64,000 bases of DNA from Acidobacteriota bacterium (GTDB lineage: Bacteria > Acidobacteriota > CAIWXX01), in assembly GCA_040755995.1 (NCBI GenBank), contig JBFMAF010000034.1, positions 32,001-96,000 on the forward strand. The letters are read 5' to 3'. A program made the translations under genes and the position numbers. Under the pieces are notes generated by a model. It was not told where the DNA came from. It worked only from the letters and a program-made list of their open reading frames with translations, and ran no database searches. Position 1 is the stretch's first letter, and each line of letters starts with the position of its first letter. Of this stretch, positions 7,575-37,637 are shown piece by piece.

Positions 7575-7913
7575 GCTGACCTGGTGTACAGTGGTCCTCT
7601 CGCACTGCATTATGCCAGCCTGCAGGAGTGCGCACAAGGGAGCCTCCGGACTGCGCCGCTGCCGCGCCGTGGTGACCACGGCACGGTACATCTCGCCGGT
7701 CAGAAGAACGGGAGACGCCGGGAGTGCGCCGATTGCAGCAAGGGATTTGGGGCCGGGGTGCCAGGGCGTCGGGTTGGTTTGACACCTCACCGAGGTCTGC
7801 CGTATTCTTGCCGGCGGCCAATCAGGAACACGGTTTCGAATCTTGGTCCCGCGGTGCTGAACCGAGGACCGACATATCCCGGACTTCGGCTCTGATGCGA
7901 GCAGGAGGTGACG

Positions 7914-18410: not shown

Positions 18411-19793
18411 CTACGAGGCGTGCTCAGCGCTTTCCCAGCCCGACTCCAGGTACCATTGCAGCACCTGCCGCAGCCGCACCACGTCGCCGACGACGATCAG
18501 CGCCGGGGGCTCCAGGTTCGCCGTCTTCACTCTCTCGACGATGTCGGCGAGGACGCCGGTCGCAGTGCGCTGCTGCGGTGTGGTCCCGCACTGAATCACC
18601 GCAGCCGGGCATTGCGGATCTTTGCCGTGGAGCAGGAGTTGCTGCACGATATGAGTGAGGTTGTGGAGGCCCATGAACACGACTAGCGTGCCGGTGCTCC
18701 TTGCGAGCCGATCCCATTGCACCGCAGGCGAGTCCTTCCCGCTTCGCTCGTGCCCGGTCACGAACGTGACCTCGGATGTGATGTCGCGGTGCGTCAGAGG
18801 GATGCCGGCATAAGCGGGCACTGCACTGCCGGCCGTGACTCCCGGAACGACCTCGAACGAAATCCCCGCCTCCGCGAGCGCCTGCGCCTCCTCGCCACCG
18901 CGCCCGAATACGAACGGGTCTCCGCCCTTCAGCCGTACGACCTTCCGGCCGGCGCGCGCTTCCCTGACGAGAATCGCGTTGATCTCCTCCTGCGGCAGGC
19001 TGTGAACCCCGTCGCGCTTGCCGACGTAAATGACCGTGGCATCTGGGCGGCACAGATCCAGCAGGCGTTTCTCGGCGAGAGCGTCGTACACGACGACGTC
19101 CGCCGTCTCCAGGCAGCGCTTCCCCTTTAGCGTGAGCAACCCCGGGTCGCCGGGGCCGGCGCCGACGAGGAACACCCGGCCTCGGTCCTGCGGATCAGAC
19201 TCCATCGAGGTCGCTGGCAGAACTGAGTCAACTATGTGCTCGAAGCGCTCCCGCTCCTCCGCGAGACCCCTTCCCTCGGCGCGCGACTGTTCTCGCAGAG
19301 CTCGCAGGCGATCCAGTGTCGTGGCGTACTCGGGTCCAAAGCTGTGCTCCAGTACCTCGCGAATGCGGCGCGCCATCGCGGGGCTCGCGCCACCGGTCGA
19401 GATGGCGATGGCTAGATCGCCCTGCCGCGCTACAGCCGGCGCGATGAAGTCGCAGAGTGCAGGCCGATCTGCTACGTTCAGCCAGACGCCGGTCGACTCA
19501 GCTTCCGACCGGACGGCCTCGTTCACCCCTGGGTCGTCGGTGGCGGCGAAGGCCAACCTGCAGCCGTGCAAATCGCCCGGCCGGTAGTGACGACGTTCGA
19601 TTGTAATGCGGCCCTGCTCCGCCCATCCCGCAATCGTACCGGTGACTTCGGGGCTGACGACGCACACCTGCGCTCCTGCTTCCAGCAGCGCCGCGACCTT
19701 GCGTTCGGCCACGACGCCGCCACCCACGACCAGGACGCGGTGACCATGGAGCTCCAGGAACACCGGGTAGTAGTGCGAAGGCGTGTGGCCCAT
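18411..19793 (-). CDS. cysG: Siroheme synthase (precorrin-2 dehydrogenase/ferrochelatase plus uroporphyrinogen-III methyltransferase)
   Basis: [57 protein letters not shown]. Confidence 0.93.
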
Positions 19794-19891: not shown

Positions 19892-20212
19892 CTAGACGCA
19901 GCCGGTGGGTTTCGGAAGCCCGGCGACCTTGCAGGCTCCCTTGGCCGGACCTGACGGGAACAGTTCGTAGACCTTCTTCAGGTTGAAGCCGGTGTCCTTG
20001 CAGAGCTTGCGGATCATCGGGGCGATCTTGAACTCGAGGTAGTAGCCGCGCAGATAGCGCACGAGCTTCCAGTGGTCATCGGTCAACTCCGCGATGCCCT
20101 CTTCCTTCAGGGCCAGCTCCTTCGCGACCTCGTCGTCCCAGAGCTCCGGGTCCTGAATGAAACCGTCTTCGTCTACTTCGAGGGTCTTCCCACCCAGTTG
20201 GACTTGTGCCAT
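19892..20212 (-). CDS. dsrC: Sulfur carrier DsrC
   Basis: DEDGFI, C-terminal GACKVAGLPKPTGCV with both conserved cysteines; position in dsr operon. Confidence 0.95.
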   Translation of the reverse strand: MAQVQLGGKTLEVDEDGFIQDPELWDDEVAKELALKEEGIAELTDDHWKLVRYLRGYYLEFKIAPMIRKLCKDTGFNLKKVYELFPSGPAKGACKVAGLPKPTGCV

Positions 20213-20276: not shown

Positions 20277-21764
20277 TCATAACGCCCTCGCATGCAGCCC
20301 GGCGAGGTCGTGCCTGCACGCGCCTTCGATGCAACCCATGCCTGCCGTGCCGGAGCTTCGCCTGCGGAAGGCGAGCGCCGTCCTCACAAGTGTCTCGGCC
20401 CATTCGGGGCAGCCGAGAGCATGGATGTGCAGGAAAGACGCCAGCACGTTCCTGTAGACGAGCCCGTCCCGTTCCCCGTCGAATCCATAACCTCTCTCGA
20501 CTCGAAAGGCCGTGCGGATGAGCTCGCTTTCGGCAGATCGAACGAATGAGTATCGGAACTCATGTCCCCGAATGACGGCTCCGATCGGAAAGTACGGGTT
20601 GGCCCGATCCGCCACCACGCAGGCGTATCCGTGTCCCATGGGACGCTTCCCCAGCTCGAAGGTCACGGGGACGACGCCCGTCATCGCATGGGCCACTCCG
20701 TCTACGACCAGGCTCTCGGCCAGGTAGATCAAGCCTCCGCATTCGGCGAACACCGGCATGCCTGACTCCACGGCCCGCCGGATCGATGCGCGGAAGCCGG
20801 TGTTGTTCTCCAGCGCGGCTGCGTGTGTCTCCGGGTAGCCTCCCCCGATGTACAGCGCGTCGATGGGCGGTAGCTGCCGGTCGGCCATGGAGTCAAGGAA
20901 AACGAGGTGAGCCCCGGCTCGCTCCAGTGCCTCCAGGTTCTCCGGGTAGTAGAACGTGAAGGCCGAGTCGCGGATGACCCCGATTCGCACGCTGGTCGTG
21001 GCCCAGGCATGCCCCTCTGCCTGGGCCGCGCGTGACCAGCGGAGTTCCGGCGCCTTTTGGGCGAGATCCATGACCGTGACCACATCCACGTGTTTGGCGA
21101 CGGCCTCGCGTGCCGCCTCTGTCGGCCGTTCGCGTTCCGGGTGCTCGGCCGGCGTGAGCAGCCCGAGGTGCCGTTCGGGAAGCGCGAGATCATGTATCTT
21201 CGGAACGCAGCCGAGCACAGGGACCCCACAAACCTGCTCGACTGCGCCCCGAATCGCATGTTCCTGCCGTTTCGTACCAGTGCGGTTGAGGATGACGCCC
21301 GCAATAGGCGCATCGGGATCCATCTTCTGGCAGCCGAGAACCATAGCCGCGACGGTCCTCGTCGCCCGTGTGCAGTCCACAACGAGGATCACGGGTGTCT
21401 GGAGCTCTCTGGCGAGCTCGGCCGAGCTGCCCTCGGCATTTGCGCCGAGCCCGTCGTGAAACCCGTGATTCGCCTCGACGATGACCAGATCCGCGCCCAC
21501 GCTCGATTCCGCCACGGACCGGCGGATCACGTCGCTCGACATCAGGTACGCGTCAAGGTTACGGCATGGTCGCCCCGCAGCCTCGCCGAGCCAGGCGGGA
21601 TCGATATAGTCCGGTCCCTTCTTGAACGGGGCGACAGCGAGGCCGCGGGAGCGCAGCTCGGCGATCAGACCTATGGTCAGAAACGTCTTGCCGCTTCCTC
21701 CGCGCAGCCCACTGATCATGAGCCGCGGGCAGTCCCGGGCCTCGCCCCGAACGCTGGGCGTCAT
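20277..21764 (-). CDS. dsrN: Siroheme amidase (cobyrinate a,c-diamide synthase-like) DsrN
   Basis: GGSGKT, FKKGPDYID, LPERHLGL, FYYPEN, AECGG, RGHEF; position in dsr operon. Confidence 0.9.
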   Translation of the reverse strand: MTPSVRGEARDCPRLMISGLRGGSGKTFLTIGLIAELRSRGLAVAPFKKGPDYIDPAWLGEAAGRPCRNLDAYLMSSDVIRRSVAESSVGADLVIVEANHGFHDGLGANAEGSSAELARELQTPVILVVDCTRATRTVAAMVLGCQKMDPDAPIAGVILNRTGTKRQEHAIRGAVEQVCGVPVLGCVPKIHDLALPERHLGLLTPAEHPERERPTEAAREAVAKHVDVVTVMDLAQKAPELRWSRAAQAEGHAWATTSVRIGVIRDSAFTFYYPENLEALERAGAHLVFLDSMADRQLPPIDALYIGGGYPETHAAALENNTGFRASIRRAVESGMPVFAECGGLIYLAESLVVDGVAHAMTGVVPVTFELGKRPMGHGYACVVADRANPYFPIGAVIRGHEFRYSFVRSAESELIRTAFRVERGYGFDGERDGLVYRNVLASFLHIHALGCPEWAETLVRTALAFRRRSSGTAGMGCIEGACRHDLAGLHARAL

Positions 21765-21784: not shown

Positions 21785-22033
21785 TCAGCTGCCCTTGGCC
21801 TCCGGTGGGATCTCCACGAAGCTACCGCCAAAGTAGGTGTAGACCAACCGCTCGGAGTCGACGAGCGAGCGAATCGCCTTCTTGCAGATGTCCTTGTTGC
21901 ACCGGTCCGGGCCAAAAAACTGGACCGCGGCCTTCTCGAGGTCCATCGGTTTCAGCTTCTTGACGCCGGTGGCATCCTTGACCATCCGGTACATCGCTTC
22001 GGCGACTTCTTCTATACTAACTGGTTCAGCCAT
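21785..22033 (-). CDS. dsrD: DsrD
   Basis: 82 aa winged-helix-sized protein immediately after dsrB; KKAIRSLVDSERLVYTYFGGS resembles the DsrD C-terminal half. Confidence 0.75.
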   Translation of the reverse strand: MAEPVSIEEVAEAMYRMVKDATGVKKLKPMDLEKAAVQFFGPDRCNKDICKKAIRSLVDSERLVYTYFGGSFVEIPPEAKGS

Positions 22034-22044: not shown

Positions 22045-23118
22045 CTAGTCCCTCCGGTGCGCGGACCGCTTGAAGGACAGTCCGGCGTACCGGAAGTCAT
22101 CGATGTGTTGCTTGGTGAACTGGATGCCCGTCTTCTGGAAGAAGCGCGGCCATCCGATGCGCTCGATCCATTCGCCCATGCGCTCGTACTTCCGCGCATC
22201 GGCCGCCCAGACTTCCACCAGGTTCTTTACGGCCCCCACGACCTCGGGCCACCGTGGTGGGTTGTTGGGCAGGAACGGGATTGCCAGCTTGGAGAAGCGC
22301 GGTTCGGATCTCGCGTTGCTGACCTTGCCGCCGACCCAGATCGAGACGCCGTCATTGAGCGGATCGTTGAGCGGCATGGCCGGGCAGACGGTGTAGCAGT
22401 TCGCGCAGAACATGCACTGCTCCTCGATTACCTCGACGGTCTCGACACCCTCGATCCGCTTCGGCCGGATCGCAGCCGTCGGGCAGGACGCCACGACCGA
22501 CGGGATCTCGCACATCTTCGGCAGCTTCTCTTTGTCGAGCTTCGGCGGACGGCGGTGGATGCCGAGGATGGCGATGTCCGAGCAGTGGACGGCACCGCAC
22601 ATGTTCAGGCAGCAGGCCAGAGCGAGGCGGAGCTTGCCCGGGAGTTTCATCGTTGTGAAGTACTCGATGAGCTCATCCATGACCGCCTTCACGACGCCCG
22701 ATGCGTCGGTAGCGGCCGAGTGGCAGTGCACCCAGCCCTGTGTGTGGACGATGTTGGATATCGAGTTACCGATCCCGCCGACGGGACGCCCAGCGGCCGT
22801 GAGATCCGCGACCAGCGGATCGATCCTGGCCGGGTCTGTGAGCAGGAATTCGACGTTGTTGCGGCTGGTGAATCTCAGGTGCCCGCCGCAGTACTTGTCG
22901 GCGAGGTCGCAGTAGAAGCGGATAGTATCGATGGCGATCAGCCGTGGCGACGCGGCGCGCACCGTGAACAGCTTGTCGCCGCTCTCGGCGACGTGCACCA
23001 TGACCCCCGGCTTAAGTACCTCGTGATAGGCCCACTTGCCGTAGTTCTTCTTCACGACGGGGGGCAGGAATTTCTCGTAGTGTGGCGGCCCAATATCAGT
23101 CAAGCGTTCCGTTGTCAT
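22045..23118 (-). CDS. dsrB: Dissimilatory sulfite reductase beta subunit
   Basis: [52 protein letters not shown]. Confidence 0.97.
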
Positions 23119-23142: not shown

Positions 23143-24351
23143 CTAGTTTCCAGCTTCCTCGTCCGCCACCTCGTACTCCTCGTAGAAGACGTACGGGTTG
23201 TCTCGCGGATAGGCGACCATTTCGGGGATCGGCTCGATGCCCACGGCTTCGAGGAAGTTGCCCATGCCTACGCGCTGGATGAACTCGCCGATGCGCTCGC
23301 GGTTCTTGCCTTCCTCGCTCCAGAGATCGAGCATCTTCGCCAACAGGTCCTTGAGCTCCTGATTAGGCAGTTCCATTTTTATGAATGGTATCAGCACGGA
23401 GGAGAGCATGGCACCCTGTACGATCGGCGCCTTGGAGCCGAGCAGGATTGTGGCACCGCGGTCGGCGCCGGGCTTCAGGGCCTTGGTCATCACGTTGATG
23501 CAGTGCATGCACTTCACGCAGAACTGGTTCTCGATCGCGAGGGCCTTGCCATCCCAGCTCATGCACTTGCTCGGGCAGAGGTCGCAGACGTCCTTCTGCA
23601 CGTCCAGGCCCTTCTTCGCGTATTCCTGAACGGCGTCCTGGTTGATCTGGATCGGTCCGCGCCAGGTTCCGATGATGCTCAGGTCCGCGCGCGCCACGGA
23701 AGCCACGCAGTCGTTCGGGCAGCCGGAGCACTTGATCTTGAACTTGTATGGGAATGCCGGCCGGTGGAGCTCATCCTGGAAGTGCATGGTGAAGTCGTAG
23801 CAGGTGGCCATCGTGTCGTAGCAGGCCCACTCGCAGCGGCCCATACCGACGCAGCAGCTGGGCGTCCGCACATCCGAGCCCGAGCCGCCCAGGTCGAATC
23901 CCGCATGTGTCAGCTCGGAGAACACGGTCTCGAGCTTGTCTGTGGAGGTCCCCAGCAGGATGATGTCACCTGTCGACCCGTGCATGTTGGTGATGCCGGA
24001 TCCGTATTTTTCCCAAATGTCGCAAACCTTGCGCAGGGCCTCTGACGTGTAGAACCATCCGGCGGGTTGGTTGATACGCATCGTGTGGAAATGCGCAATG
24101 TTGGGGAACTTGTCGGGCACATCAGAATACCGCCCGATGACGCCGCCTCCGTACCCGCGCACGCCGACTATGCCACCGTGCTTCCAGTGCCCGATCTTCT
24201 CGTTGTAGGAAAGCTCGAGGACACCCAGAAGATCTTTGGCTGGGTCGCTTCTAGCGGCGGCCAACTTGATCTCGCGCACGAAGCTCGGCCACTGGCCCTT
24301 CTCCAGCTCGCTCAGCTTCGGCGTTTCCGGCAGTTTCTTCGCTTCACCCAT
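23143..24351 (-). CDS. dsrA: Dissimilatory sulfite reductase alpha subunit
   Basis: HWKHGGIVGV.GYGGGVIGRY, NMHGSTGD, CVGMGRC and CPNDC siroheme/Fe-S motifs. Confidence 0.97.
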   Translation of the reverse strand: MGEAKKLPETPKLSELEKGQWPSFVREIKLAAARSDPAKDLLGVLELSYNEKIGHWKHGGIVGVRGYGGGVIGRYSDVPDKFPNIAHFHTMRINQPAGWFYTSEALRKVCDIWEKYGSGITNMHGSTGDIILLGTSTDKLETVFSELTHAGFDLGGSGSDVRTPSCCVGMGRCEWACYDTMATCYDFTMHFQDELHRPAFPYKFKIKCSGCPNDCVASVARADLSIIGTWRGPIQINQDAVQEYAKKGLDVQKDVCDLCPSKCMSWDGKALAIENQFCVKCMHCINVMTKALKPGADRGATILLGSKAPIVQGAMLSSVLIPFIKMELPNQELKDLLAKMLDLWSEEGKNRERIGEFIQRVGMGNFLEAVGIEPIPEMVAYPRDNPYVFYEEYEVADEEAGN

Positions 24352-24398: not shown

Positions 24399-26072
24399 CT
24401 ACCGCATTTCAATGTAACCGCAGGGGCATTCCTCTGCGCACTTCTTGCAACCCTGACAGAATTCCAGCTTGAACTTGTAAGGCTCGTTCCTGTCCATCGG
24501 CTTCACGATGGCCTGGTCCTGGCAGTACTTCCAGCAGCTATCGCAAGTGAAGCACAGCCCGCAGCTCATGCACCGCTTGGCCTCGGCGATCGCCTGCTCC
24601 ATCGAGAGCCCCAGATTGACCTCGCCGTCCGGATCCGCGAACCGCTGCTCGACAGGTACCGCAGAGGCCTGCGCCCGCGCTATCCTCTGGTAGAAATCGA
24701 GCTTCATCTTGTTGTGCGCGATCGGAGGCGGCGGCACCTCATCTACGAACGGAATCCCACGCAGCCGATGATGGATAGTCTCGGCGGCGCGCCGCCCGTG
24801 GTATATAGCCGTGGTCACGATGCCGAGCTCCAGTATGTCGCCCCCCGCAAACGTGTTCGCAACGGCCGTCTCGCCGCGTTCGTCTACCGGAATCCAGCCC
24901 TTCGGGCCCTTCAACGAATCGAGCCCAGTCCAGATCGGTTCCTGGCTGATGGCCGGAATAATGAAAGACGCGGGAACGAAGAACTCTGATCCCTTGATCG
25001 GAACCGGGCGCCGGCGCCCGCTGGCATCAGGCTCCCCAAGCTCCATTCTCAAGCAAGTCATGCCCGACGCGCGTCCGTTCTCGGCGACGATGGCCACCGG
25101 AGCCGCGAGGAACTCGATCTTGATCCCTTCGTGCTCGGCGTCTTCAATCTCATGTTTGATTGCGGGCATCTCGGCAATCGTGCGGCGGTAAACGATAGTG
25201 ACGTTCGCGCCCAGCCGCTTGGATACGCGGGCGGCGTCGATTGCCGTGTCCCCACCTCCGATCACGATCACGTTGCCGCCGACCTCAATCCTCTCGCCGG
25301 TGTTTACACGATGGAGGAACTCGGCACCCGTGAGGACATTGGAGGAATCCTCGCCGGCCACCCCGAGTCTGGCTCCCTTGTGAGCACCGATCCCGACGAA
25401 GATCGCCTGGTGACTCTGGCGCACCTCGTCGAGTGAGATGTCCTTGCCGACCATCGTGTTGAGCCTCAGCTCTACACCCAGCGCGAGCAGCCGATCTATC
25501 TCGGCATCCAGGACGGCGTGAGGCAGGCGGTACTTGGGAATGCCATACCGCAACATCCCGCCCGCCTTCGGGAAGGATTCGAAGACCGTCACCGAATAGC
25601 CGCGACGTGCCAACTGGTACGCGCAGGAAAGGCCGGCTGGCCCGGAACCTATCACGGCGACTTTCTCAGACTGTCGTTCGTCGGTCAGTCGCTTCAGCTC
25701 CAGCTTGTTCTCCAGCGCGAAGTCCCCGATGGCTCGCTCGATGCAGTTGATCGACACGGGCCCATCCACATGCTCGCGGTTACACTGATCTTCGCACAGG
25801 TGAGGACAGACCCTGCCGCAGACGGCTGGGAGCGGGTTCTTCTCCGTCACGATGCCAAAAGCCTCTCGAAAGGCCTGGTCGTAGCTTTTCCCCTTGTTTT
25901 CGGCCTGCGCGATCGTCGTGATGATTCCACGAACGTCGGTCTGGTTCGGGCAACCGGTCGAGCATGGTGGCGTTTTGAGTACGTACAGGGGCCGGAGAGG
26001 CGATGTCTCCCGCGCACTGGTGCTCGCTCCCGTGCCCACACCCAACTTGCGGACTTTCTTGACGACGGCCAC
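24399..26072 (-). CDS. dsrL: DsrL iron-sulfur flavoprotein (NAD(P)H oxidoreductase), DsrL-2-like
   Basis: N-terminal Fe-S motifs (CSTGCP, CGRVCP), GSGPAG, GGGDTA, YRR motif, CMSCGLC linker, C-terminal CQGCKKCAEECPCGYIEM; directly upstream of dsrA. Confidence 0.9.
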   Translation of the reverse strand: MAVVKKVRKLGVGTGASTSARETSPLRPLYVLKTPPCSTGCPNQTDVRGIITTIAQAENKGKSYDQAFREAFGIVTEKNPLPAVCGRVCPHLCEDQCNREHVDGPVSINCIERAIGDFALENKLELKRLTDERQSEKVAVIGSGPAGLSCAYQLARRGYSVTVFESFPKAGGMLRYGIPKYRLPHAVLDAEIDRLLALGVELRLNTMVGKDISLDEVRQSHQAIFVGIGAHKGARLGVAGEDSSNVLTGAEFLHRVNTGERIEVGGNVIVIGGGDTAIDAARVSKRLGANVTIVYRRTIAEMPAIKHEIEDAEHEGIKIEFLAAPVAIVAENGRASGMTCLRMELGEPDASGRRRPVPIKGSEFFVPASFIIPAISQEPIWTGLDSLKGPKGWIPVDERGETAVANTFAGGDILELGIVTTAIYHGRRAAETIHHRLRGIPFVDEVPPPPIAHNKMKLDFYQRIARAQASAVPVEQRFADPDGEVNLGLSMEQAIAEAKRCMSCGLCFTCDSCWKYCQDQAIVKPMDRNEPYKFKLEFCQGCKKCAEECPCGYIEMR

Positions 26073-26145
26073 TCTTGAAATCTCCTTTCCCTAGCACTGC
26101 CCATCCATCGGGAGGGGCATGAGTCTAGCCCAATCTGCTAGTTAG

Positions 26146-26162
26146 AGCAAAGACTTTGCCAA
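26146..26162 (-). promoter_or_regulatory. Sigma-54 (-24/-12) promoter of the dsrL operon
   Basis: Minus strand TTGGCAAAGTCTTTGCT: GG-N10-GC with TGGCA and TTGC flanks, about 75 bp upstream of the dsrL start. Confidence 0.75.
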
Positions 26163-26225
26163 CAGCCCGGCGTGTCAGAATTCCTTGAGAAAGCGGCTCG
26201 GATGTCCTTCCCCTGCAGCGGCGGC

Positions 26226-26243
26226 CATTACCGAAAGGTAACA
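26226..26243. promoter_or_regulatory. Palindromic operator/UAS box 1
   Basis: CATTACC-GAAA-GGTAACA; variant of the perfect box at 26724. Confidence 0.65.
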
Positions 26244-26328
26244 TTGGGCACCCAGGTGTCACCTCCGCGAAACCATACTCCCCGACCGTCATATTGCCGG
26301 CGAGACCCCGCTCTCTCAGCCCGATACT

Positions 26329-26550
26329 TCAGGTGGCCGGACGCCGGGGAATCCCGAGTATCTTCGTCTTCTTCCACAGCGTCTTCCGGCTGATCCCCAG
26401 CATCTGCGCGGCCTTGCCCCGGTTGCCGCCGGTCAGCTGCAGGACCGAGATGATATGCGCACGTTCGGCCTCCTCTCTGATGCGATCGAGCGGCCTGTGC
26501 GAAGCATCAACCTCCTTGTCGCCATTCCCCTGCTTCTTCTCGCTTTCCAT
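26329..26550 (-). CDS. Stand-alone Fis-type (HTH_8) DNA-binding protein
   Basis: ERAHIISVLQLTGGNRGKAAQMLGISRKTLWKK matches the Fis/EBP C-terminal HTH; GAGGG RBS. Confidence 0.75.
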   Translation of the reverse strand: MESEKKQGNGDKEVDASHRPLDRIREEAERAHIISVLQLTGGNRGKAAQMLGISRKTLWKKTKILGIPRRPAT

Positions 26551-26723
26551 CCCTCAGTCCTGCGGCAGCTCCTGCCCGAGACGCTAGCTTCCTCCACGCA
26601 ATTCGGTCGCCTCAAGCAAGTACCTTGCCATCCGCCTGCCTGCCCTCCGAACCGGTCGACGCCTGGGTCGCGGAACTGCGCAGACTTTGGGGCGGGCGCC
26701 TCACGCCCCCACATCCCCATCCG

Positions 26724-26741
26724 TGTTACCTTGAGGTAACA
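26724..26741. promoter_or_regulatory. Palindromic operator/UAS box 2
   Basis: Perfect inverted repeat TGTTACC-TTGA-GGTAACA. Confidence 0.7.
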
Positions 26742-26772
26742 AATCGTCCACCGGACCGCTCAAGAAGTTGGC

Positions 26773-26788
26773 GGGCACGTCTCTTGCT
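26773..26788 (+). promoter_or_regulatory. Sigma-54 promoter of the cytidylate-kinase-like gene
   Basis: GGGCACGTCTCTTGCT: GG-N10-GC. Confidence 0.7.
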
Positions 26789-26839
26789 ATTGAATGGGCG
26801 GGTCAGGCACGGCTGGGTCTGGACCGTGGGAAGCTACAT

Positions 26840-27631
26840 ATGGCGATAGTTACGATCTCGCGCGGCACACTTAGTGGCGGCCGGCGGCTTGCGACATGCC
26901 TCGCGGCGGGGCTCGGGTATCAGGTGATCAGCCGCGAGCTGCTGGCGGAGGCGGCGCGGAGGTACGGAGTAGACGAGCAGAACCTGATCAGGGGTGTGGA
27001 GCAGCCGCCGTCGTTCTGGGAGCGGTTCCGGACAGACCGCCAGGTGTACCTGGAGGTCATCCGAGCCACTCTGTGCCAGCTTGTGAGACAGGACAATGTC
27101 GTCTACCACGGGCACGCCGGGCACATGCTGCTCCAGGGTGTCGAGCACGTGCTGCGGGTGCGGGTTATTGCGCCCATGGCCTACCGGGTGAGGGCTGCCA
27201 TGGCGACTCAGGGCCTGGGTGAGAAGGAGGCCGAGGCGTACATTCGCAGGAAGGACGAGGAGCGAGCTGCCTGGACGAGGTTTCTGCACGGGGTCGCCTG
27301 GGACGACCCCGGCCTCTACGACCTCACCTTCAACCTGGAAAACGTTACGGTCGAGGCAGCCTGCGAAGCGATCGTGAGGATGGTGGACCGGCCGGAATTC
27401 CGGATGACCGTCGACAGCATGAGACGCCTCGAGGACTTGTACGTCGCCAGCCATGTCCGGAGCATGCTCTTCCTCAACCCCAAGGTCGGGATGGCCGCAT
27501 CCAAGATCGACGTGACGGCTTCCTCAGGTGTCGTTCGACTCTCAGGGCTGCCACCCGGCGATGTGCTTGTGGCGGAGGCTGTCCGGACTTGCCGGCAGAT
27601 GCCGGAGGTCAAGGACGTGCAGGCTGGGTAA
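26840..27631 (+). CDS. Cytidylate-kinase-like family protein with C-terminal BON-like domain
   Basis: IVTISRGTLSGG degenerate P-loop, VVYHGHAGH, LRVRVIAP, YDLTFN; IDVTASSGVVRLSG BON-like tail. Confidence 0.8.
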   Translation: MAIVTISRGTLSGGRRLATCLAAGLGYQVISRELLAEAARRYGVDEQNLIRGVEQPPSFWERFRTDRQVYLEVIRATLCQLVRQDNVVYHGHAGHMLLQGVEHVLRVRVIAPMAYRVRAAMATQGLGEKEAEAYIRRKDEERAAWTRFLHGVAWDDPGLYDLTFNLENVTVEAACEAIVRMVDRPEFRMTVDSMRRLEDLYVASHVRSMLFLNPKVGMAASKIDVTASSGVVRLSGLPPGDVLVAEAVRTCRQMPEVKDVQAG

Positions 27632-27666
27632 GGGCGCTCGAAGACCAGAACTGCCGAGGCGGCCGA

Positions 27667-27684
27667 AGTTTCCAAGAGGTAACA
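27667..27684. promoter_or_regulatory. Palindromic operator/UAS box 3
   Basis: AGTTTCC-AAGA-GGTAACA; variant of the box at 26724. Confidence 0.65.
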
Positions 27685-27801
27685 TCCCATTCCGCCGGAA
27701 TCGCACCGTGCCCGTCCGGCCTCGCGTGTATCTGCTTGATTTCTATCGACAATCTATGGGATCGCGGACTGGTACGGCCGTTGTCACCGACTTCAGTCCT
27801 C

Positions 27802-27817
27802 AGGCACAACTCTTGCT
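27802..27817 (+). promoter_or_regulatory. Sigma-54 promoter of the apr-qmo-sat operon
   Basis: AGGCACAACTCTTGCT: GG-N10-GC. Confidence 0.7.
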
Positions 27818-28042
27818 AGCGTTCATGATGCGCCGATGGCGCGCGCGGTCGCGAGTCTGCGCATGTGGAAACCTTGGAAAGGGAGGTGGTGGGCGGAGAA
27901 AGAGACGAGATCGGAGAAACTCAAGAGGGTGTTCTCCCGGCGATCAGCACCGGTGAGAGCAGGAGTCAAACGCATTCTTTCTTAAGAAAGGGGCAAAGCG
28001 GTAACGGCGGCCAGGCCGCTTATCGCTGCGAGGAGGTAATTC

Positions 28043-28480
28043 ATGCCAAGTTACGTCAACCCGGACAAGTGTGATGGCTGCAAGGCGCTGGACAAGACCG
28101 CCTGCCAGTACATTTGCCCGAACGACCTCATGGTTTTGAACAAGGACACCATGAAGGCGTACAACCGGGAACCCGAGATGTGCTGGGAGTGCTACAACTG
28201 CGTGAAGATCTGCCCGACGCAGGCAGTCGCAGTTCGCGGCTACGCGGACTTCGTGCCGATGGGCGCGGACGTAGTGCCGTTGCGCTCTACTGACAACATA
28301 ATGTGGACGGTGAAGTTCCGCAACGGGAGCGTGAAGCGCTTCAAGTTCCCGATCCGGACCACTACAGAGGGTCAGGCAGTTCCATCCGGCGGCTGGGAAA
28401 CCGCGCCATCTATCGATGGCCCAACACTGTCCAGCGAACCCGAATCCCTTGGCCTGCCCGAAGTGTGGACCAAGAAGTAG
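28043..28480 (+). CDS. aprB: Adenylylsulfate reductase beta subunit
   Basis: MPSYV, CDGCK...CQYICPNDLM, CWECYNCVKICP, RFKFPIRTT. Confidence 0.97.
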   Translation: MPSYVNPDKCDGCKALDKTACQYICPNDLMVLNKDTMKAYNREPEMCWECYNCVKICPTQAVAVRGYADFVPMGADVVPLRSTDNIMWTVKFRNGSVKRFKFPIRTTTEGQAVPSGGWETAPSIDGPTLSSEPESLGLPEVWTKK

Positions 28481-30463: not shown

Positions 30464-30790
30464 ATGGCTGAGACCAAGCACGACCTGAAGTGCCCCCACT
30501 GCGGCCAGATGCTGAGCCCGTTCGGGCTGCCCGAGAGCGGCGGTTGGGAGTTGCCATTTCAGTTGGCGTGTTTCAACGATGAGTGTTCTTATTACTCCCG
30601 GGGCTGGGGATGGATGTTCGAGCGGTTCGGGGTGAGGGCATCCTACCGCTACCGGGTGGATCCCGTTTCCGGACAGGCTTCCCCGCTTCCGGTGTGGTCC
30701 CCTACTGCACTGCGGGACCGAATTCTGGACGACGACACCCTCGAGAACATCCTTTCTACCCAGGACGTGATCCCTGAACAGAACTGCTAG
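30464..30790 (+). CDS. Small Cys-containing (zinc-ribbon-like) hypothetical protein
   Basis: CPHC and CFNDEC motifs; GAGGG RBS; lies within the apr-qmo operon. Confidence 0.75.
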   Translation: MAETKHDLKCPHCGQMLSPFGLPESGGWELPFQLACFNDECSYYSRGWGWMFERFGVRASYRYRVDPVSGQASPLPVWSPTALRDRILDDDTLENILSTQDVIPEQNC

Positions 30791-30826
30791 CTCGGGCGCG
30801 TTCCGCGGGAACTGGTACATCTAGAC

Positions 30827-31633
30827 ATGAGCACACAAGCCGGCGCCCTGCCCGAGGCCCTGCGTAGCCAGAGGCAACTCGGCGCAGACGAGCGCTTCAC
30901 TTTCGCTTGCCATCCGGGTCTCCGTTGTTTCACGCGCTGCTGTGCGGACATCAACATCCTGCTGACGCCGCTCGACGTGCTGCGGCTCGCCCGGAGACGC
31001 GGGATGACGACCCGTGAGTTCCTTGACACCCATACTCTGACGCCGATAACGAAAGAGCTGCATCTACCCGTCGTCATGTTGCGCATGGGAGCCGACCCGG
31101 AGCGTCGCTGCCCATTTGTGCATCCGGAGACGGGTTGCACGGTCTACGATGAGCGGCCGTGGGCGTGCCGCATGTATCCGCTGGGCATGGCATTGCCTCC
31201 GGCGCGTGCCGGTGTAGAACCGCAGCCGCTTTACGTCATGTTCGAGGAGGACTTCTGCCTGGGACGTGGCGAGAAGCGGGAGTGGACGGTCAATCGATGG
31301 CGGAACGATCAAGGTATCGTGGCACACGACGAGATCGAGGCCGGGTTCCGCGAGATCGTCTCACACCCCTGGTTCATAGGCGGTCGGCAGCTGGACCCGA
31401 AGCGGATGGAGATGTACTTCACCGGCTGCTACGACCTCGACACTTTCCGGAGCTTCATCTTCGAGTCCACGTTTCTTCGTAGATTCGAGCTCGACGAAGC
31501 CCTGGTCGAGAAGCTCCGGACCGACGATATGGAACTATTCCGGTTTGCCTTTCGCTGGCTCCGCTACGCCCTCTTCGGCGAACCGACAATGAAGGTACGG
31601 CCTGATGCGCCGTCATCCCGGAGGAATAAATGA
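30827..31633 (+). CDS. YkgJ/UPF0153 family cysteine-cluster protein
   Basis: CHPGLRCFTRCC, CPFV...GCTVY..RPWACRMYP; ATAAATG overlap with qmoA. Confidence 0.85.
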   Translation: MSTQAGALPEALRSQRQLGADERFTFACHPGLRCFTRCCADINILLTPLDVLRLARRRGMTTREFLDTHTLTPITKELHLPVVMLRMGADPERRCPFVHPETGCTVYDERPWACRMYPLGMALPPARAGVEPQPLYVMFEEDFCLGRGEKREWTVNRWRNDQGIVAHDEIEAGFREIVSHPWFIGGRQLDPKRMEMYFTGCYDLDTFRSFIFESTFLRRFELDEALVEKLRTDDMELFRFAFRWLRYALFGEPTMKVRPDAPSSRRNK

Positions 31634-32886
31634 ACCCATCCAAACCGCTGCCCCTGCTCGTGCTCGGGGCAGGCATCGCCGGCATCACGGCAGCGCTGGA
31701 GGCCGCCGAGGCCGGCCGCGACGTGGTGCTGGTCGAGGCCGAGCCTGCCGTGGGCGGCCGCGTGCTTCGCAATCACCTCTACTTCCCGAAGCTCTGTCCC
31801 CCATCGTGCGGGATGGAGATCAACGTTCGCCGGCTCGAACGGAACCCACGCATCAGGGTCCTGGTCCGGACGAACGTCGGCAAGGCGACTTCGACTCCGG
31901 ACGGCTGGCTGGTGACGCTGAACCAGGCCCCCGCTTACATCAATGATCGCTGTACGATGTGCGGAGTCTGCAGCGAGGCATGCCCCGCCAAGGTCTCCGA
32001 TCCGTTCAACCTGGGCATGAAGCAGGTGCCGGCCATTCGAATACCTCATCCCAGTGCGTGGCCGCGTCGCTTCGTGATGGATCGCAAGGCCTGCCCGGCA
32101 GATTGCAAGGCCTGCGTGGATGCGTGCAAGTACAACGCGATCGACCTGAATGCGTCGCCGCTGGAGGAGACGGTCGAGGTCTCCGCCGTCGTGATCGCAA
32201 CGGGGTGGCATCCTTACCCGATCGAGAAGCTCACGGAGCTCGGAGGCGGAACCCTGCCCGACGTGATCGCGAATGTCCAGATGGAGCGGCTGGTGTCGCC
32301 GGCGGGCCCTACAGCCGGCAAGATCCAGCGGCCGTCCGACGGCCGGACGCCCAAGCGCGTCGCTTTCGTACAGTGCGCAGGCTCGAGGGACGTGAACCAC
32401 CTCCCGTACTGCTCCGCTGTCTGCTGCCTGGCATCACTGAAGCAGGCGCTGTACGTCCACGACCAACTGCCCGAGACCGAGGTCACCATCTATTACATCG
32501 ATCGCCGTGCGCCGGGCCGCAACGAAGATGTCCTGACTCGCGTGGCGGCGACATCCGGCGTGAAGCTCGTCAAGGGCAAGGTCGGCAAGATCGAGCGCGG
32601 GTCGGGCGGCGCTTTGAAGTTGAGCGTGGAGGACGTGGAGTCCGGGCGGCTGGCCGACGCCCAGGCCGACCTAGTCGTGCTCGCCACCGGAATGGTGCCC
32701 AACGTGCGCACCGACCAGCTCCCATTCGGTCTCACCAATGACGATGATGGATTCGGGCTGGACAACATGGAGAGGCGGGTCGTCGTCGCGGGCGTTTCGC
32801 GGCGCCCGGAAGATGTGGCTGCGTCTGTCAGAGACGCCACCGGGGCCGCTGCGAAGGCCATGGTCGCGGCCGGAAGGAGAGCATAG
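31630..32886 (+). CDS. qmoA: QmoA (HdrA-like)
   Basis: GAGIAG, FPKLCPPSCG, ferredoxin motifs, QCAGSRD, YCSAVCC. Confidence 0.93.
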   Translation: MNPSKPLPLLVLGAGIAGITAALEAAEAGRDVVLVEAEPAVGGRVLRNHLYFPKLCPPSCGMEINVRRLERNPRIRVLVRTNVGKATSTPDGWLVTLNQAPAYINDRCTMCGVCSEACPAKVSDPFNLGMKQVPAIRIPHPSAWPRRFVMDRKACPADCKACVDACKYNAIDLNASPLEETVEVSAVVIATGWHPYPIEKLTELGGGTLPDVIANVQMERLVSPAGPTAGKIQRPSDGRTPKRVAFVQCAGSRDVNHLPYCSAVCCLASLKQALYVHDQLPETEVTIYYIDRRAPGRNEDVLTRVAATSGVKLVKGKVGKIERGSGGALKLSVEDVESGRLADAQADLVVLATGMVPNVRTDQLPFGLTNDDDGFGLDNMERRVVVAGVSRRPEDVAASVRDATGAAAKAMVAAGRRA

Positions 32887-35133
32887 ATGCAGAAGTTCGG
32901 CGTTTTCATTTGCACCGGTTGCGGCATCGGCGAGGCGATCAAGGTCGATCCACTCGCCGCCAAGGCGAAGAAGGCCGGCGCAGTTGTCTGCACGACCCAT
33001 CCGTGCTTGTGTGCGCCGGAGGGCGTCGCGGCGATACGATCGACGCTCCAGGGCGGAGCGGCTGAAGGGGTACTGCTTGCCGCGTGCTCGATCCGAGCGA
33101 AGTCCGAGGAGTTCAGGTTCGATCCGGCGCAGGCGGCGGTAGAGCGGGTCAGCCTGCGGGAACAGTGCGTCTGGTCGCACCCGGCAGGTGACGAGAATAC
33201 GCAGATGCTGGCCGAAGACCTCATGGCCATGGGCCTTGCCAAGATCGCCAAGATCAGCGTCCCCAAACCACTAACGGAGACTATCGAGCACACGGTGTTG
33301 GTGGTCGGAGGCGGGATCGCCGGACTGGAGGCCGCCAGGGCGGCTGCGGGTGTAGGCCACCCAGTGGTCCTCGTCGAGGCGAAGGACAAGGTTGGAGGTC
33401 ACCTGGCGAGTATCAAGGACATGGTGCCGGAGCATCCCCCGTACGACGTCGTTCACCCCAATCGAGTCACTGAGCTGGCCGCCCAGGTGAGCGCCCACCC
33501 TCAGATCCGCATCCTGACGTCGGCGAAGATCCGGAGCATCGCGGGCCAGCCCGGTCAGTTCCAGGTCGAGGTCGATACGCCGATCGGAGCCCTGTCGTTC
33601 ACAGCCGGCGCGATCGTCCAGGCCACGGGCGCGCGACCATACGACGCGCGCAAGCTCGCGCACCTCGGATACAGCCAGTCCCCCAACGTGGTCACGTCGC
33701 AGGAGCTCGATGGGATGCTCGGCGCCGGTAAGCTCGCCCGCCCCTCTGACGGCAAGTTGCCCGAGCACATCGTCTTTGTCCAGTGCGCGGGCTCGCGCGA
33801 TCCGCAGCACCTCCCGTACTGCTCCTCCGAGTGCTGCGGGAACACGCTCAGGCAGGTTGCGGCGATCCACCGCGACTACCCGAAGGTCGAGACCGCCGTG
33901 GTCTACCGCGACATGAGAACACCGGGGCAGCTCGAAAGATTCTACCTCGCTGTTCAGTCGCAGCCCAACGGTATGTTCACACGGGGCGAGGTCGAGAAGG
34001 TCGAGGGCAACGGTCACCTGAAGGTCTATCTGCGCGAGAGCCTGCTCGGCGACGGCGTCGCGCTTGACGCCGACCTGGTCGTTCTCGCCGTGGGCATGGT
34101 GCCGAACACGGCAGACGGCGAAGCTGTCCGCACGCTGCACGACGCGCAGAAGCGCGCCGCCACGGGAGACTCGGAGGTGCAGAAGGCCGAGGCCGCGAAG
34201 TTGGCCGCCTCTCTCATCCATCATGGGGGCACTGAGATCCTGAACCTTGGCTACCGCCAGGGCCCGGACCTCCCTATCCTCAAGTACATGTTCCACGACT
34301 CGCACTTCATCTGTTTCCCGTACGAGACACGCCGTACCGGCGTTTACGTGGCTGGATCGGCGCATGCCCCGATGGATGCTGCACAGGCGGCAGAAGACGG
34401 ATGGGGCGCGGCGATGAAGGCCGTACAGTGCATCGCGGCGGCGTGGCGAGGCGAGGCCGTTCACCCGCGCGCGGGTGACATCACGATCCCCGACTTCTTC
34501 CTGCAGCGCTGCACGCAGTGCAAGCGATGCACCGAAGAGTGCCCGTTCGGCACGCTGAACGAGGATGTGAAGGGCACGCCGCAGCCTAATCCTTTGCGCT
34601 GCCGACGGTGCGGTATCTGCATGGGCGCGTGTCCCGAGCGGATTGTCTCGTTTGCCGACTACTCGGTTGATGCCATCTCCTCGATGATCAAGGCGATGGA
34701 GGTGCCGGAGGAGGACGAGGAGAAGCCGCGCATAGTCGCTTTCCTGTGCGAGAACGATGCGGTGCCCGCCCTGGACGTGGCGGCCAGCCAGCGCCGGAGC
34801 TGGAACCCGTGGGTCCGGGTGATCCCGTTGAGGTGCCTCGGGTCCATGAACATCGTCTGGATCGCGGATGCGCTGTCGAGGGGCATCGACGGAGTCATTC
34901 TCATCGGCTGCAAACGTGGGGATGACTACCAGTGCCACTTCGTCAAGGGCTCCGAGCTGGCCAACACGAGGCTCAGCAACGTTCAGGAGACCCTCCAGCG
35001 CCTCCAGCTCGAGAAGGAGCGCATCCAGGTGGTCGAGCTGGCGCATGACGAGTACCACAGAATCACGGACGTTCTCGATGAGTTCGCCGGTGTCATCGAG
35101 AAGGTCGGCCCGAATCCGATGAAGGGATTCTGA
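32887..35133 (+). CDS. qmoB: QmoB (HdrA-like plus MvhD-like domain)
   Basis: CTGCGIG, QCAGSRD, YRQGPDLP, CTQCKRC, RCLGS and GCKRGDDYQCHF motifs. Confidence 0.93.
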   Translation: MQKFGVFICTGCGIGEAIKVDPLAAKAKKAGAVVCTTHPCLCAPEGVAAIRSTLQGGAAEGVLLAACSIRAKSEEFRFDPAQAAVERVSLREQCVWSHPAGDENTQMLAEDLMAMGLAKIAKISVPKPLTETIEHTVLVVGGGIAGLEAARAAAGVGHPVVLVEAKDKVGGHLASIKDMVPEHPPYDVVHPNRVTELAAQVSAHPQIRILTSAKIRSIAGQPGQFQVEVDTPIGALSFTAGAIVQATGARPYDARKLAHLGYSQSPNVVTSQELDGMLGAGKLARPSDGKLPEHIVFVQCAGSRDPQHLPYCSSECCGNTLRQVAAIHRDYPKVETAVVYRDMRTPGQLERFYLAVQSQPNGMFTRGEVEKVEGNGHLKVYLRESLLGDGVALDADLVVLAVGMVPNTADGEAVRTLHDAQKRAATGDSEVQKAEAAKLAASLIHHGGTEILNLGYRQGPDLPILKYMFHDSHFICFPYETRRTGVYVAGSAHAPMDAAQAAEDGWGAAMKAVQCIAAAWRGEAVHPRAGDITIPDFFLQRCTQCKRCTEECPFGTLNEDVKGTPQPNPLRCRRCGICMGACPERIVSFADYSVDAISSMIKAMEVPEEDEEKPRIVAFLCENDAVPALDVAASQRRSWNPWVRVIPLRCLGSMNIVWIADALSRGIDGVILIGCKRGDDYQCHFVKGSELANTRLSNVQETLQRLQLEKERIQVVELAHDEYHRITDVLDEFAGVIEKVGPNPMKGF

Positions 35134-35157
35134 TGAAGTTTGGAGGTTAAGGGAGAC

Positions 35158-36294
35158 ATGGCATCTGTTCCAGTGTTCGCTCCATCCTCGACATTCCGTG
35201 ACGAGCTGCGGCGCCGGGGAGGCGAGACGGCGCTCCGGTGCTACCAGTGTGCGACATGTTCGAGCGTCTGCGAGCTGGCCCCCGCCGAAGCTCCATTTCC
35301 GCGTCGCCAGATGCTTTGGGCGCAGTGGGGACTGGCGGACCGGATAGCGGCGGACCCGTCGGTCTGGCTTTGTCACCAGTGCAACGATTGTACTCAGCGA
35401 TGCCCGCGAGACGCGAAACCTGGTGACGTGCTTTCCGTGGTTCGCGCGCTGACCATCGAGAAGCTGGCGTTCCCGCGGTTCGTGGGGAGCCTTGTCGGGA
35501 AGGTCCGTGTGACGTGGCCGTTGGTTCTCGGCATCCCCATCCTGTTCTGGGTCCTCCTGCTCATGGCGGTGAACGGCCTGCAGGTGCCGCAGGACTTCCG
35601 GGCGTACGAGCAGTTCGTGCCGCACTGGTTGCTGTACGCGGTCTATTTTCCCGTGGTGGGCTGGGTGGTATTGGCGAGCTGGGTGAGCGGCCGCCGATTC
35701 TGGTCGCTGCTTGGACTGGGGGCCTCGCGCAACGGATCCTTCCTGGGGCATCTATGGCCGGCGCTGATGGAGGTCGGCACGCACAAGCGCTTCGGCAACT
35801 GCACCGCTGCGCGTCCGCGCAAGATCGCCCACCTTGCGCTGCTGTGGGGCTTCGTCGGCGCGGCAGTGACATCGGGGCTTCTGATCATGGCGATCTACGT
35901 CCAGGGCATGACGCTCGACAACGGGCAGATGCCGCTCTCTCTGTGGCACCCGTACAAGATCCTCGGCAACATCTCGGCGGTATTGCTCGTTGTCGGTGGG
36001 GTGCTGCTGGTGGCGAACCGGTTGCAAGACGGAGTCCGCTCCGGTGCCTCGACAGCATTCGACTCGTTCTTCCTGACTGTTGTGGGACTCGTGATCGTGA
36101 CGGGCGTACTCACCGAAGCAGGGCGATTCGGATTTACTCCGGAGCTGGCATGCGCGCTCTACGTGGTGCACCTGGGTGTGGTACTCTGCCTGTTCGTCAC
36201 GTTCCCCTATTCCAAGTTCGCGCACATGCTCTACCGTACGCTGGCAATGGTTCACGCCAGGATGGCGGGCATCGTCTCACCGCGCGCCAAGTAG
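35158..36294 (+). CDS. qmoC: QmoC (ferredoxin plus heme-b membrane domain)
   Basis: CYQCATCSSVC, CHQCNDC..CP, six TM segments, PYSKFAH. Confidence 0.93.
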   Translation: MASVPVFAPSSTFRDELRRRGGETALRCYQCATCSSVCELAPAEAPFPRRQMLWAQWGLADRIAADPSVWLCHQCNDCTQRCPRDAKPGDVLSVVRALTIEKLAFPRFVGSLVGKVRVTWPLVLGIPILFWVLLLMAVNGLQVPQDFRAYEQFVPHWLLYAVYFPVVGWVVLASWVSGRRFWSLLGLGASRNGSFLGHLWPALMEVGTHKRFGNCTAARPRKIAHLALLWGFVGAAVTSGLLIMAIYVQGMTLDNGQMPLSLWHPYKILGNISAVLLVVGGVLLVANRLQDGVRSGASTAFDSFFLTVVGLVIVTGVLTEAGRFGFTPELACALYVVHLGVVLCLFVTFPYSKFAHMLYRTLAMVHARMAGIVSPRAK

Positions 36295-36368: not shown

Positions 36369-37637
36369 ATGAGTAAACTCGTACAACCGCATGGGAGTGC
36401 GGATCTGAAGGCTCTTCTGCTTCAGGGGAAGGAAGCGGAGGAGGAGAAGAAGAAGGCTGAGACGCTCAAGAAGGTCCCCATGACCAGCCGGGAAACCTCG
36501 GACTTGATCATGATGGCCATCGGAGCTTTCACGCCGCTGCCGGGGTTCATGGGCCGGGACGATTGGAAGGGCTGCTGCGAGAACTACCAGCTGCCGTCCA
36601 TGAAGAACCTGTTCTGGCCCATCCCGATCACGCTGTCGGCCGAGCAGGCGCTTGCCGATTCGATCAAGATCGGCGAGGAAGTCGGGCTCTGGGACACGGA
36701 GACCGAGGCCTATGTCGGGACGATGAAGGTCACCGAGAAGTACGGGATCGACAAGGATTACGAGTGCAAGCAGGTGTTCCGGACCACCGACAAGGCGCAC
36801 CCGGGCGTGCAGAAGGTCATGGAGCAGGCACCCGTCAACCTGGCCGGCCCGATCCGGCCGTTCTCGGAGTCCTACTACCCCGAGATGTTCTCCACCATCT
36901 ATCAGCGGCCTGCCGAAGCGAGGAAGGCCTTCGAGGAGCGCGGGTGGAGCACCGTGGCGGCGCTGCAGCTCCGCAACCCGATGCACGGCTCGCATGCATA
37001 CCTGGCGTGGATCGCCATCGAAGTGTGCGACGGCGTCTACATTCACCAGCTCGTCGGCAAGCTGAAGCCGGGAGACATACCGGCCGAGGTGCGCGTGAAG
37101 GCAATCGATGCGCTCGTGAACAAGTACTTCCGCAAGGAGCGCGTGATCCAGGGCGGGTACCCGATGGAGATGCGCTATGCCGGACCGCGTGAGGCGCTGT
37201 TGCACGCCGTGTTCCGCCAGAACTACGGCTGCAGCCACCTGATCGTCGGCCGCGACCATGCAGGTGTCGGCGACTACTACGGCCCGTTCGATGCGCAGAA
37301 GATCTTCCTGGAGATCCCGCACGGAGCGCTCGAGCTCAAGCCGCTGCCGCTCGACTGGACCTTCTACTGCTACGAGTGCAAGGGCATGGCGTCGATGAAG
37401 ACCTGCCCGCACGAGAGCAAGGCCGTGATCGACGAGAACGGCAACTACAAGGGCGGCGCCAGGCTCCTGCTCTCCGGCACGCTGCTCCGGAAGCTGATGA
37501 GCGAAGGGAAGCCCGTGCCCGAGGAGTTCAGCAAGCCCGAGGTCATCGCGATCCTGAACGACTACTACAACAGCCTCGAGAAGAAGGTGGAGATCAAGCT
37601 GCACGGATTCGCCACCGGCGAAGCCGGCAAGAAGTAA
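36369..37637 (+). CDS. sat: Sulfate adenylyltransferase, copy 1
   Basis: [33 protein letters not shown] motifs. Confidence 0.97.

Follow-up and report, generated by a model that had tools for sequence, protein, structure and literature searches.

A shared enhancer-like palindrome and sigma-54-type promoter elements upstream of dsr and apr-qmo-sat operons in Acidobacteriota and NC10-phylum genomes

The window analysed here is a stretch of 64,000 nucleotides from an Acidobacteriota bacterium (assembly GCA_040755995.1, contig JBFMAF010000034.1 [C34], positions 32,001 to 96,000) that carries genes of dissimilatory sulfur metabolism in two operons, dsrL-A-B-D-N-C and aprBA-qmoABC-sat. Four -24/-12 promoter elements of the sigma-54 type within 1.7 kb serve the upstream regions of both operons, and copies of a palindrome, TGTTACC-N4-GGTAACA, accompany them (Table 1). 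To judge from sequence, it is highly probable that this is a real sigma-54 regulon, and we propose that a dedicated sigma-54 activator, acting at the palindromes as enhancers, probably switches on both operons. The layout, in which sigma-54 promoters share the palindrome, recurs in 14 other genomes from two phyla.

A first-pass annotation of the window had described three correctly oriented GG-N10-GC elements and three palindromes (starting at 26226, 26724 [perfect], and 27667) that all keep the GGTAACA half-site, and had interpreted them as sigma-54 promoters with a shared enhancer-type palindrome. The sequences bear this out: orientations, positions, and half-sites are as described (only the minus-strand element ends one base earlier, at 26161 instead of 26162), rpoN is encoded on contig C43 (TIGR02395 above cut-off), a promoter-pattern scan found no sigma-70-like site within 26050-28060, and a candidate activator is present. 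The inventory was nonetheless incomplete, missing a fourth element (26615-26630, minus strand), a gene for a stand-alone helix-turn-helix (HTH) protein of 73 amino acids (aa), and a partner site at 26257-26274. Given the fourth element and the HTH gene, the perfect palindrome sits between divergent promoters. All four elements are correctly oriented upstream of a gene. The palindrome centres lie at approximately -99 (dsrL), -128 (HTH gene), and -152 (aprB) relative to the predicted starts, which fits the enhancer distance of about 80-150 base pairs (bp) upstream of a start; that of the cytidylate-kinase-like gene is nearer, at -66. An IHF-like stretch (AATCAA-N4-ATA, 27729-27741, minus strand) is found between the aprB site and promoter, with a similar stretch in the relative G420, and the genome has five HU/IHF-family genes.

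Five palindrome matches with up to three mismatches occur in the window against 0.49 expected, a number reached by none of 100 shuffles. Across the whole genome (7.7 Mb, 99.8% complete) there are five matches with two or fewer mismatches, three of them within the 1.5 kb described here. Strict sigma-54 consensus matches number 135, and only 0.23% of the positions in the genome lie 20-150 bp from one; all three sites do, for which the chance probability is approximately 1e-8 (a post hoc figure). Under two matrices built from other organisms (12 distinct sites from metagenome dsrL loci, and 74 sites with the consensus nGTTACC-N4-GGTAACn), the three sites of the window rank 1, 2, and 3 genome-wide. 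The conserved core is GTTAC-N6-GTAAC, mostly in tandem pairs, rather than the full 14 bases; a tandem-pair scan of the source genome returned zero pairs above threshold.

One set of conserved loci belongs to the NC10/Methylomirabilota phylum. A metagenome search for dsrL gave 40 loci, the 11 closest of which were examined: five have the HTH gene, two palindromes 31 bp apart, and dsrL, with a sigma-54 element approximately 62-64 bp further on in four (none is listed for L056), while two are short contigs with a promoter element (one with a site) and four have neither. Among 251 sampled NC10-phylum genomes (six candidates scored per genome in the activator search), an orthologue of the candidate activator occurs in 15 and this type of DsrA in nine, eight of which have both; five more encode a divergent DsrA (35-37%). 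All nine dsrL-type genomes share the same succession of HTH gene, site pair 30-31 bp apart, gap of 62-64 bp, identical or nearly identical sigma-54 element, and dsrL. Motif counts are 55 versus 17 for the reversed control in these nine genomes, and 5 versus 17 in six genomes with neither gene. Three of the nine (G401, G416, and G420) have aprA; in each, an orthologue of the cytidylate-kinase-like protein (61-70%) is encoded upstream of aprB and the aprB element AGGCAC-N5-TTGC is conserved; for G416 and G420 a site was scored 142-143 bp upstream, and for G401 a sub-threshold one was seen by eye. A site pair and a TTGGCAC-N5-TTGA variant, also read by eye, precede sat in G420 and G401. Site pairs are further found ahead of YeiH/PSE and TauE exporter genes in NC10-phylum relatives, and dsrT follows dsrC by about 40-65 bp in G415 and G418.

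Seven activator-positive NC10-phylum genomes are without this DsrA. In five of them a site pair lies behind the activator gene and ahead of PhsA-, ArrA-, or TtrA-like or FdnG genes (with an HTH gene between activator gene and pair in three); in the other two the contigs end too soon. The motif is therefore tied to the activator, not to dsr. The HTH and site-pair cassette of G420 is duplicated around transposase-like genes (L113:14159-18998), the upstream copy being without a listed sigma-54 element. A set of epimerase, radical-SAM, and glcD/glcF-like genes recurs beside the regulator (L105, L114, L118, and L131), preceded by a site and sigma-54 element in L105 and L131; it is possible that this set is an electron-donor module of the regulon.

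In the Acidobacteriota, dsrA was found in 41 of 401 sampled genomes. Five genomes from three families (G142, G164, G372, G225, and G273) have GTTAC-N6-GTAAC (at most one mismatch) upstream of dsrAB, followed 75-95 bp later by a sigma-54 element, and in four of these loci a YeiH/PSE gene comes first, before dsrAB. Searched for the exact core, the five genomes yielded 13 matches, and the control 2. Six had already been seen when the pattern was designed; all seven new ones lie upstream of aprB (3), dsrT (3), or sat (1), a strict sigma-54 element being listed for four. Since dsrT has both a site and a sigma-54 promoter in G273 and G372 (and a site alone in G142), the regulon appears to extend to dsrT in relatives. 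Conservation of the motif upstream of sulfur genes is thus seen in two phyla. A kinase-activator gene pair follows dsrP-cysG in all five motif-bearing genomes; the five activators form one clade with the recognition helix G[IV]SRKTLWEK, sister to the clade of the source activator. No stand-alone HTH gene was seen at the five loci read.

Two other searches were less informative. An activator search at E<=1e-140 (401 Acidobacteriota genomes, four candidates per genome) returned the source genome alone, a cut-off that missed the sister clade, and the cytidylate-kinase-like protein, used as bait in species genomes, gave six relatives (31-45%), none near dsr or apr and none with the motif. In the class, represented by three genomes, the two family relatives have background matches only and the dsr locus of G001 is without the motif. 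Three Acidobacteriota genomes have, upstream of dsrC-A-B, a PAS-PAS activator-like gene with a degenerate GAFTGA loop, GALPGA (L038:8163-9917, also L036 and L037); these dsrC loci show a sigma-70-like promoter and no palindrome, and the gene is predicted to represent another, different route of dsr regulation.

The candidate activator and its kinase are encoded on contig C34 at 113716-116584, outside the window and 55 kb from dsrL, and are 74% and 63% identical, respectively, to a pair seen 8 kb upstream of dsrL in metagenome loci L056 and L078. The kinase gene (HAMP-HisKA-HATPase) lies 10 bp upstream of the activator gene, which it adjoins in relatives too. The activator has receiver, AAA+, and HTH_8 domains (Pfam) with GETGTGKE (Walker A), GAFTGA, and FLDEV (Walker B) motifs. 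Its recognition helix, GISRKTLWKK, is shared by the stand-alone HTH protein and is found in this activator alone among the 41 activator open reading frames (ORFs) listed (a 42nd row is another ATPase). The protein scores below the curated cut-off of all 25 NCBIfam activator families (the best being AtoC, 449 versus 714 bits), and homologues at 69-77% identity come with source names that include Methylomirabilales and Rokubacteria. From co-occurrence, synteny, and the identical helix we are fairly confident that this candidate is the regulator acting at the palindrome, which is thus likely to be the binding site of an undescribed two-component activator.

A CxxCH motif marks the N-terminal domain of the kinase. 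It is invariant, as is a Met, in 14/14 aligned domains (rows picked for the motif) and is present in 17 of 19 kinase orthologue matches, the remaining two being partial frames. A profile of the domain matches the Geobacter heme-c sensors 3B42 (E 4e-4) and 3B47 (E 0.025) and Tll0287 (5B82, E 0.043); Pfam matches among the 14 domains are weak (PF21563 in 9, sCache_3_2 in 7, and PF11845 in 1), and those of the first member fall below cut-off. A 2026 preprint names this family sCache_heme and, in its accessible text, attributes to a signalling-fused member the properties of an NO (nitric oxide) sensor rather than O2 binding (PMC12889525). The kinase resembles sCache_heme proteins (DUF3365/Tll0287; GSU0582/GSU0935) in having a CxxCH-bearing domain ahead of HAMP-kinase, and differs in that PF11845 is weak and found in one of 14 kinase domains, the studied proteins being from Pseudomonas and, as far as that text goes, without a dsr link (PMC12889525). 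NO as the signal is, by this analogy, a lead on the unlikely side.

The predicted regulon of the source genome takes in two small genes besides the dsrL and aprB operons and does not cover the whole pathway. The first-pass annotation had placed the entire pathway under the activator and expected the motif to reach dsrMKJOP, which the genome does not bear out: dsrT-M-K-J-O-P lies on contig C37 behind TTGACA-16-TAGAAT (an 11/12 sigma-70 match), and neither a palindrome (best score 1.6) nor a sigma-54 consensus occurs upstream of dsrT. This promoter is one of two near-consensus sigma-70 promoters (11/12 each) that stand back to back between dsrT and a divergent lipoprotein-like gene (L029:274-447). 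A scan with the 74-site matrix found no palindrome or sigma-54 element upstream of dsrM, the kinase gene, or the YeiH/PSE exporter gene at 7908-9359, which stands 10 kb away from the dsr genes, whereas in relatives exporters of this family belong to the predicted regulon. No match to the Rex family PF06971 was obtained among 31 candidates scored. A facultative lifestyle, also suggested by the first-pass annotation, is plausible; it fits the encoded COX1-family and cytochrome bd subunits, without being proven by them.

We envisage the following mechanism. The putative periplasmic heme-c Cache domain of the kinase would read a gas or redox cue (NO by analogy), and the kinase would phosphorylate the activator. 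Activator dimers on the sites, which in relatives are paired about three helical turns apart, would then oligomerise and loop to sigma-54 polymerase approximately 100-150 bp downstream. The same activation would yield the stand-alone HTH protein, which has the same helix and no ATPase and may, by competing for the sites, exert negative feedback. In the source genome dsrTMKJOP would stay outside the regulon, using its sigma-70-like promoter instead.

Competition is the simplest reading of a helix without an ATPase behind a promoter of the same regulon, and we give it an even chance. At least 48 homologues of the HTH protein (58-108 aa) were found, with varying start codons and N-termini, and in three molybdoenzyme loci a GG-N10-GC element, read by eye, lies just upstream of the gene. 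The median ratio of nonsynonymous to synonymous substitution rates (dN/dS) of 17 distinct 47-codon cores is 0.18 (0.17 for the activator C-terminus), which indicates a selected gene rather than a decaying remnant. The same regulon and activator could instead be helped by the HTH protein, as a Fis-like DNA bender or as a second-site partner stabilising the activator. Such a role seems possible, though on the unlikely side. The protein has an HTH_8 domain with Fis among its best matches in the PDB, and its gene, under purifying selection, is directly upstream of the site pair at 9/9 dsrL and three molybdoenzyme loci; however, it aligns to the C-terminal half of Fis alone (residues 54-96 of 98) and is without the N-terminal half. 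All 18 HTH cores listed keep the exact helix of the activator and should therefore occupy the same bases, and the HTH protein, unseen at sister-clade loci, is therefore not needed for activation there.

More remote from the proposed activator is the idea that the palindrome is only the operator of a small HTH repressor, with another of the 41 activators driving the promoters from other sites. The HTH gene does adjoin the sites, the candidate activator is far off, and in genome G352 dsrA is directly preceded by a sigma-54 element and an activator gene (L134:11514-12511), without this palindrome. We nevertheless regard it as quite improbable, as in G410 and G414 the activator gene is followed by a site pair with no HTH gene in between, in five Acidobacteriota genomes the motif goes together with the sister activator and no stand-alone HTH gene appears at the loci read, and the site positions (approximately -99 and -130) are enhancer-like rather than promoter-overlapping. 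Control of the entire pathway by one activator, dsrMKJOP included, appears true of relatives, where dsrT follows dsrC or has its own site and sigma-54 element; for the source organism, with its dsrT promoter on C37, it is improbable. Chance matches, or a contig mis-binned from another organism, are barely credible and largely refuted. The reversed-pattern control also gives five matches genome-wide at two or fewer mismatches, and because of this the genome-wide count is not enriched; the signal lies in the clustering and the promoter link, and spacing and sequence are conserved in the 14 other genomes. DsrA (support 93/94) and AprA (100/99) of the source genome are sister to an NC10-phylum clade (the DsrK and DsrM trees do not settle the placement), but 13/13 10-kb windows of C34 are nearer in tetranucleotide use to the source genome than to NC10-phylum DNA, which argues against mis-binning. 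Cross-phylum transfer of genes, sites, and regulator, in either direction, is plausible.

Several further observations weigh against the proposed regulon and its activator. At the locus itself, dsrL has a degenerate distal site, no relative shows a gap like the 31 bp found at the cytidylate-kinase-like gene, and the activator gene is 55 kb away from the dsr/apr cluster and has no palindrome upstream in the 74-site matrix scan. Among the NC10-phylum genomes, G407 has sites and no activator match (a 2.9-Mb assembly, six candidates scored), two training loci hardly differ from test genomes, and the nine loci go back to one ancestor and so are not independent trials. Of the 28 Acidobacteriota dsr loci examined (of 40 others), 23 are without the motif; the sister-clade link depends on an approximate likelihood ratio (SH-aLRT) value of 88 in a quick 39-row tree. 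Sister-clade kinases have no CxxCH in the stretches read, and two of the three scanned have a plain sCache_3_2 domain, so that heme sensing is not general.

Features of the window are collected in Table 1. The leftward transcript probably ends with cysG, and sat is likely the end of the aprB transcript; the 74-site scan found no palindrome or sigma-54 element of its own upstream of sat. Family and PDB searches with the dsrD-like ORF gave a weak winged-helix Pfam match and no match to the DsrD family or a PDB entry. All apr loci read whose sequence continues beyond aprA have the zinc-finger-like and CxxCxxCC genes between aprA and qmoA. A near-complete second sat copy (52167-53435, 98% identical, preceded by a qmoC 3' fragment) is separated from the first by DNA methylase, HerA, and transposase genes, and a partial copy (92%) is found at 58461-59213. 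In its compactness the arrangement looks as though the exporter genes standing between the dsr and apr blocks in G420 had been deleted.

Table 1. Regulatory elements and genes of the window (positions are those of the window).
Feature	Position	Strand	Remarks
Sigma-54 -24/-12 element of dsrL, TGGCAAAGTCTTTGCT	26146..26161	-	Predicted start ~26135
Proximal dsrL palindrome, CATTACC-GAAA-GGTAACA	26226..26243		2 mismatches; 64 bp upstream of promoter, centre ~ -99
Distal partner site of dsrL	26257..26274		Degenerate; exactly 31 bp from proximal; scores 1.5 (12-site matrix), 6.2 (74-site)
Sigma-54 element of HTH gene, TGGCAAGGTACTTGCT	26615..26630	-	Predicted start ~26604; 93 bp from central palindrome
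Perfect palindrome, TGTTACC-TTGA-GGTAACA	26724..26741		Sole perfect copy in genome; best matrix match
Sigma-54 element of cytidylate-kinase-like gene	26773..26788	+	Predicted start ~26799; 31 bp from palindrome; gaps of relatives 61-142 bp
aprB palindrome, AGTTTCC-AAGA-GGTAACA	27667..27684		2 mismatches; 117 bp upstream of promoter; third-best matrix match genome-wide
Sigma-54 element of aprB, AGGCACAACTCTTGCT	27802..27817	+	Predicted start ~27828
cysG (siroheme synthase)	18411..19793	-	NCBIfam PRK10637 above cut-off
dsrC	19892..20212	-	TIGR03342 above cut-off, PF04358
dsrN (CobB-like siroheme amidase), named from position	20277..21764	-	TIGR00379 above cut-off; same position in relatives
dsrD-like ORF, 82 aa, named from position alone	21785..22033	-	Homologues (43-71%) after dsrB in relatives
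dsrB	22045..23118	-	TIGR02066 above cut-off
dsrA	23143..24351	-	TIGR02064 above cut-off
dsrL, first gene of leftward operon	24399..26072	-	PRK12771 above cut-off; directly upstream of dsrA in relatives
Stand-alone Fis-type HTH gene, 73 aa	26329..26550	-	PF02954, E 4e-14
Cytidylate-kinase-like protein with C-terminal BON domain	26840..27631	+	PF13189, weak PF04972
aprB	28043-28480	+	TIGR02060 above cut-off
aprA	28494-30380	+	TIGR02061 above cut-off
Two accessory ORFs, 108-aa zinc-finger-like and CxxCxxCC proteins	30464..31633	+	Weak PF04606; PF03692; syntenic in relatives
qmoA, qmoB, qmoC	31630..36294	+	HdrA-like matches; qmoC above cut-off
sat	36369..37637	+	PRK04149 above cut-off; starts 75 bp past qmoC

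Two-component sigma-54 systems of the NtrB/NtrC type, such as AtoS/AtoC and ZraS/ZraR, act through tandem enhancers, as in the glnAp2 model. The system described here is NtrB/NtrC-like in its receiver-AAA+-Fis-HTH activator with GAFTGA, adjacent kinase, pairs about 31 bp apart (approximately -99 and -130), and -24/-12 elements; unlike those examples, the candidate has another motif, dissimilatory sulfur targets, and an extra stand-alone HTH protein. It is a predicted, undescribed regulon of a known kind, the new parts being the motif, the tandem geometry, the activator family, the small HTH protein, and the reach to apr, sat, and dsrT. We found no literature on the palindrome or on sigma-54 control of dsr, apr, or sat (subscription journals, RegPrecise, and supplements were outside the search), in agreement with the first-pass annotation, which knew of no description of the motif; the term 'dsr' is absent from the main text of PMC12316311 and PMC6615313.

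The nearest published systems are given here as far as the accessible text of each source goes. The sigma-54 two-component system TspS/TspR of Acidithiobacillus caldus, the closest case among sulfur genes, acts on sox (thiosulfate oxidation) through the site TGTCCC-N4-GGGACA (PMC6335251). Both systems place energy-related sulfur genes under sigma-54 through a TGT...ACA palindrome; the TspSR site has 16 bp and serves sox, whereas nGTTACC-N4-GGTAACn has 18 bp and serves dsr, apr, and sat. In Desulfovibrio, qmo and sat respond to Rex and conserved Rex sites lie at dsrABD, apsAB, and dsrMKJOP, with further control of dsr and apr left unexplained (PMC4045070). The target class is the same, but Rex is a repressor, and the candidates scored in the source genome included no Rex match. 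The main text on the sigma-54 regulome of D. vulgaris contains none of the terms 'dsr', 'apr', and 'sat' (PMC4641369); its sigma-54 targets include PSE and TSUP transporters (PMC4641369), as do the predicted targets in the relatives described here.

Sulfate-reducing Acidobacteriota alternate between oxygen and sulfate and transcribe dsrAB almost only under anoxia, with no regulator named in the accessible text (PMC10564751). This contrasts with model reducers, in which dsrAB is constitutive, as in D. vulgaris (PMC8794893), or weakly Rex-repressed (PMC4045070). Tentatively, and with somewhat less than even confidence in the whole, we suggest that a dedicated activator family (helix SRKTLW[K/E]K, enhancer GTTAC-N6-GTAAC) may, in two phyla, be what turns on dissimilatory sulfate/sulfite respiration in facultative reducers. 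In one branch a gas such as NO would be sensed via heme-c, and a truncated copy of the activator, still DNA-binding, would serve as a feedback brake; between phyla, the regulator would have moved together with pathway and enhancers, and the cassette would have been re-wired to arsenate-, tetrathionate-, and thiosulfate-reductase-like and formate dehydrogenase genes. The motif can serve as a marker, as the seven new exact-core matches in five genomes illustrate. The finding also flags a group with dsrL and a dsrD-like gene in the NC10/Methylomirabilota phylum (dsrL-A-B-[D-like] operons at L098, L101, L102, L104, L106, L108, L111, L113, and L117), contrary to a 2023 review whose accessible text gives the phylum as without dsrD and dsrL (PMC10591310). 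With a candidate activator, kinase, motif, and predicted starts in hand, facultative switching of sulfate respiration becomes testable in Escherichia coli without culture of the organism.

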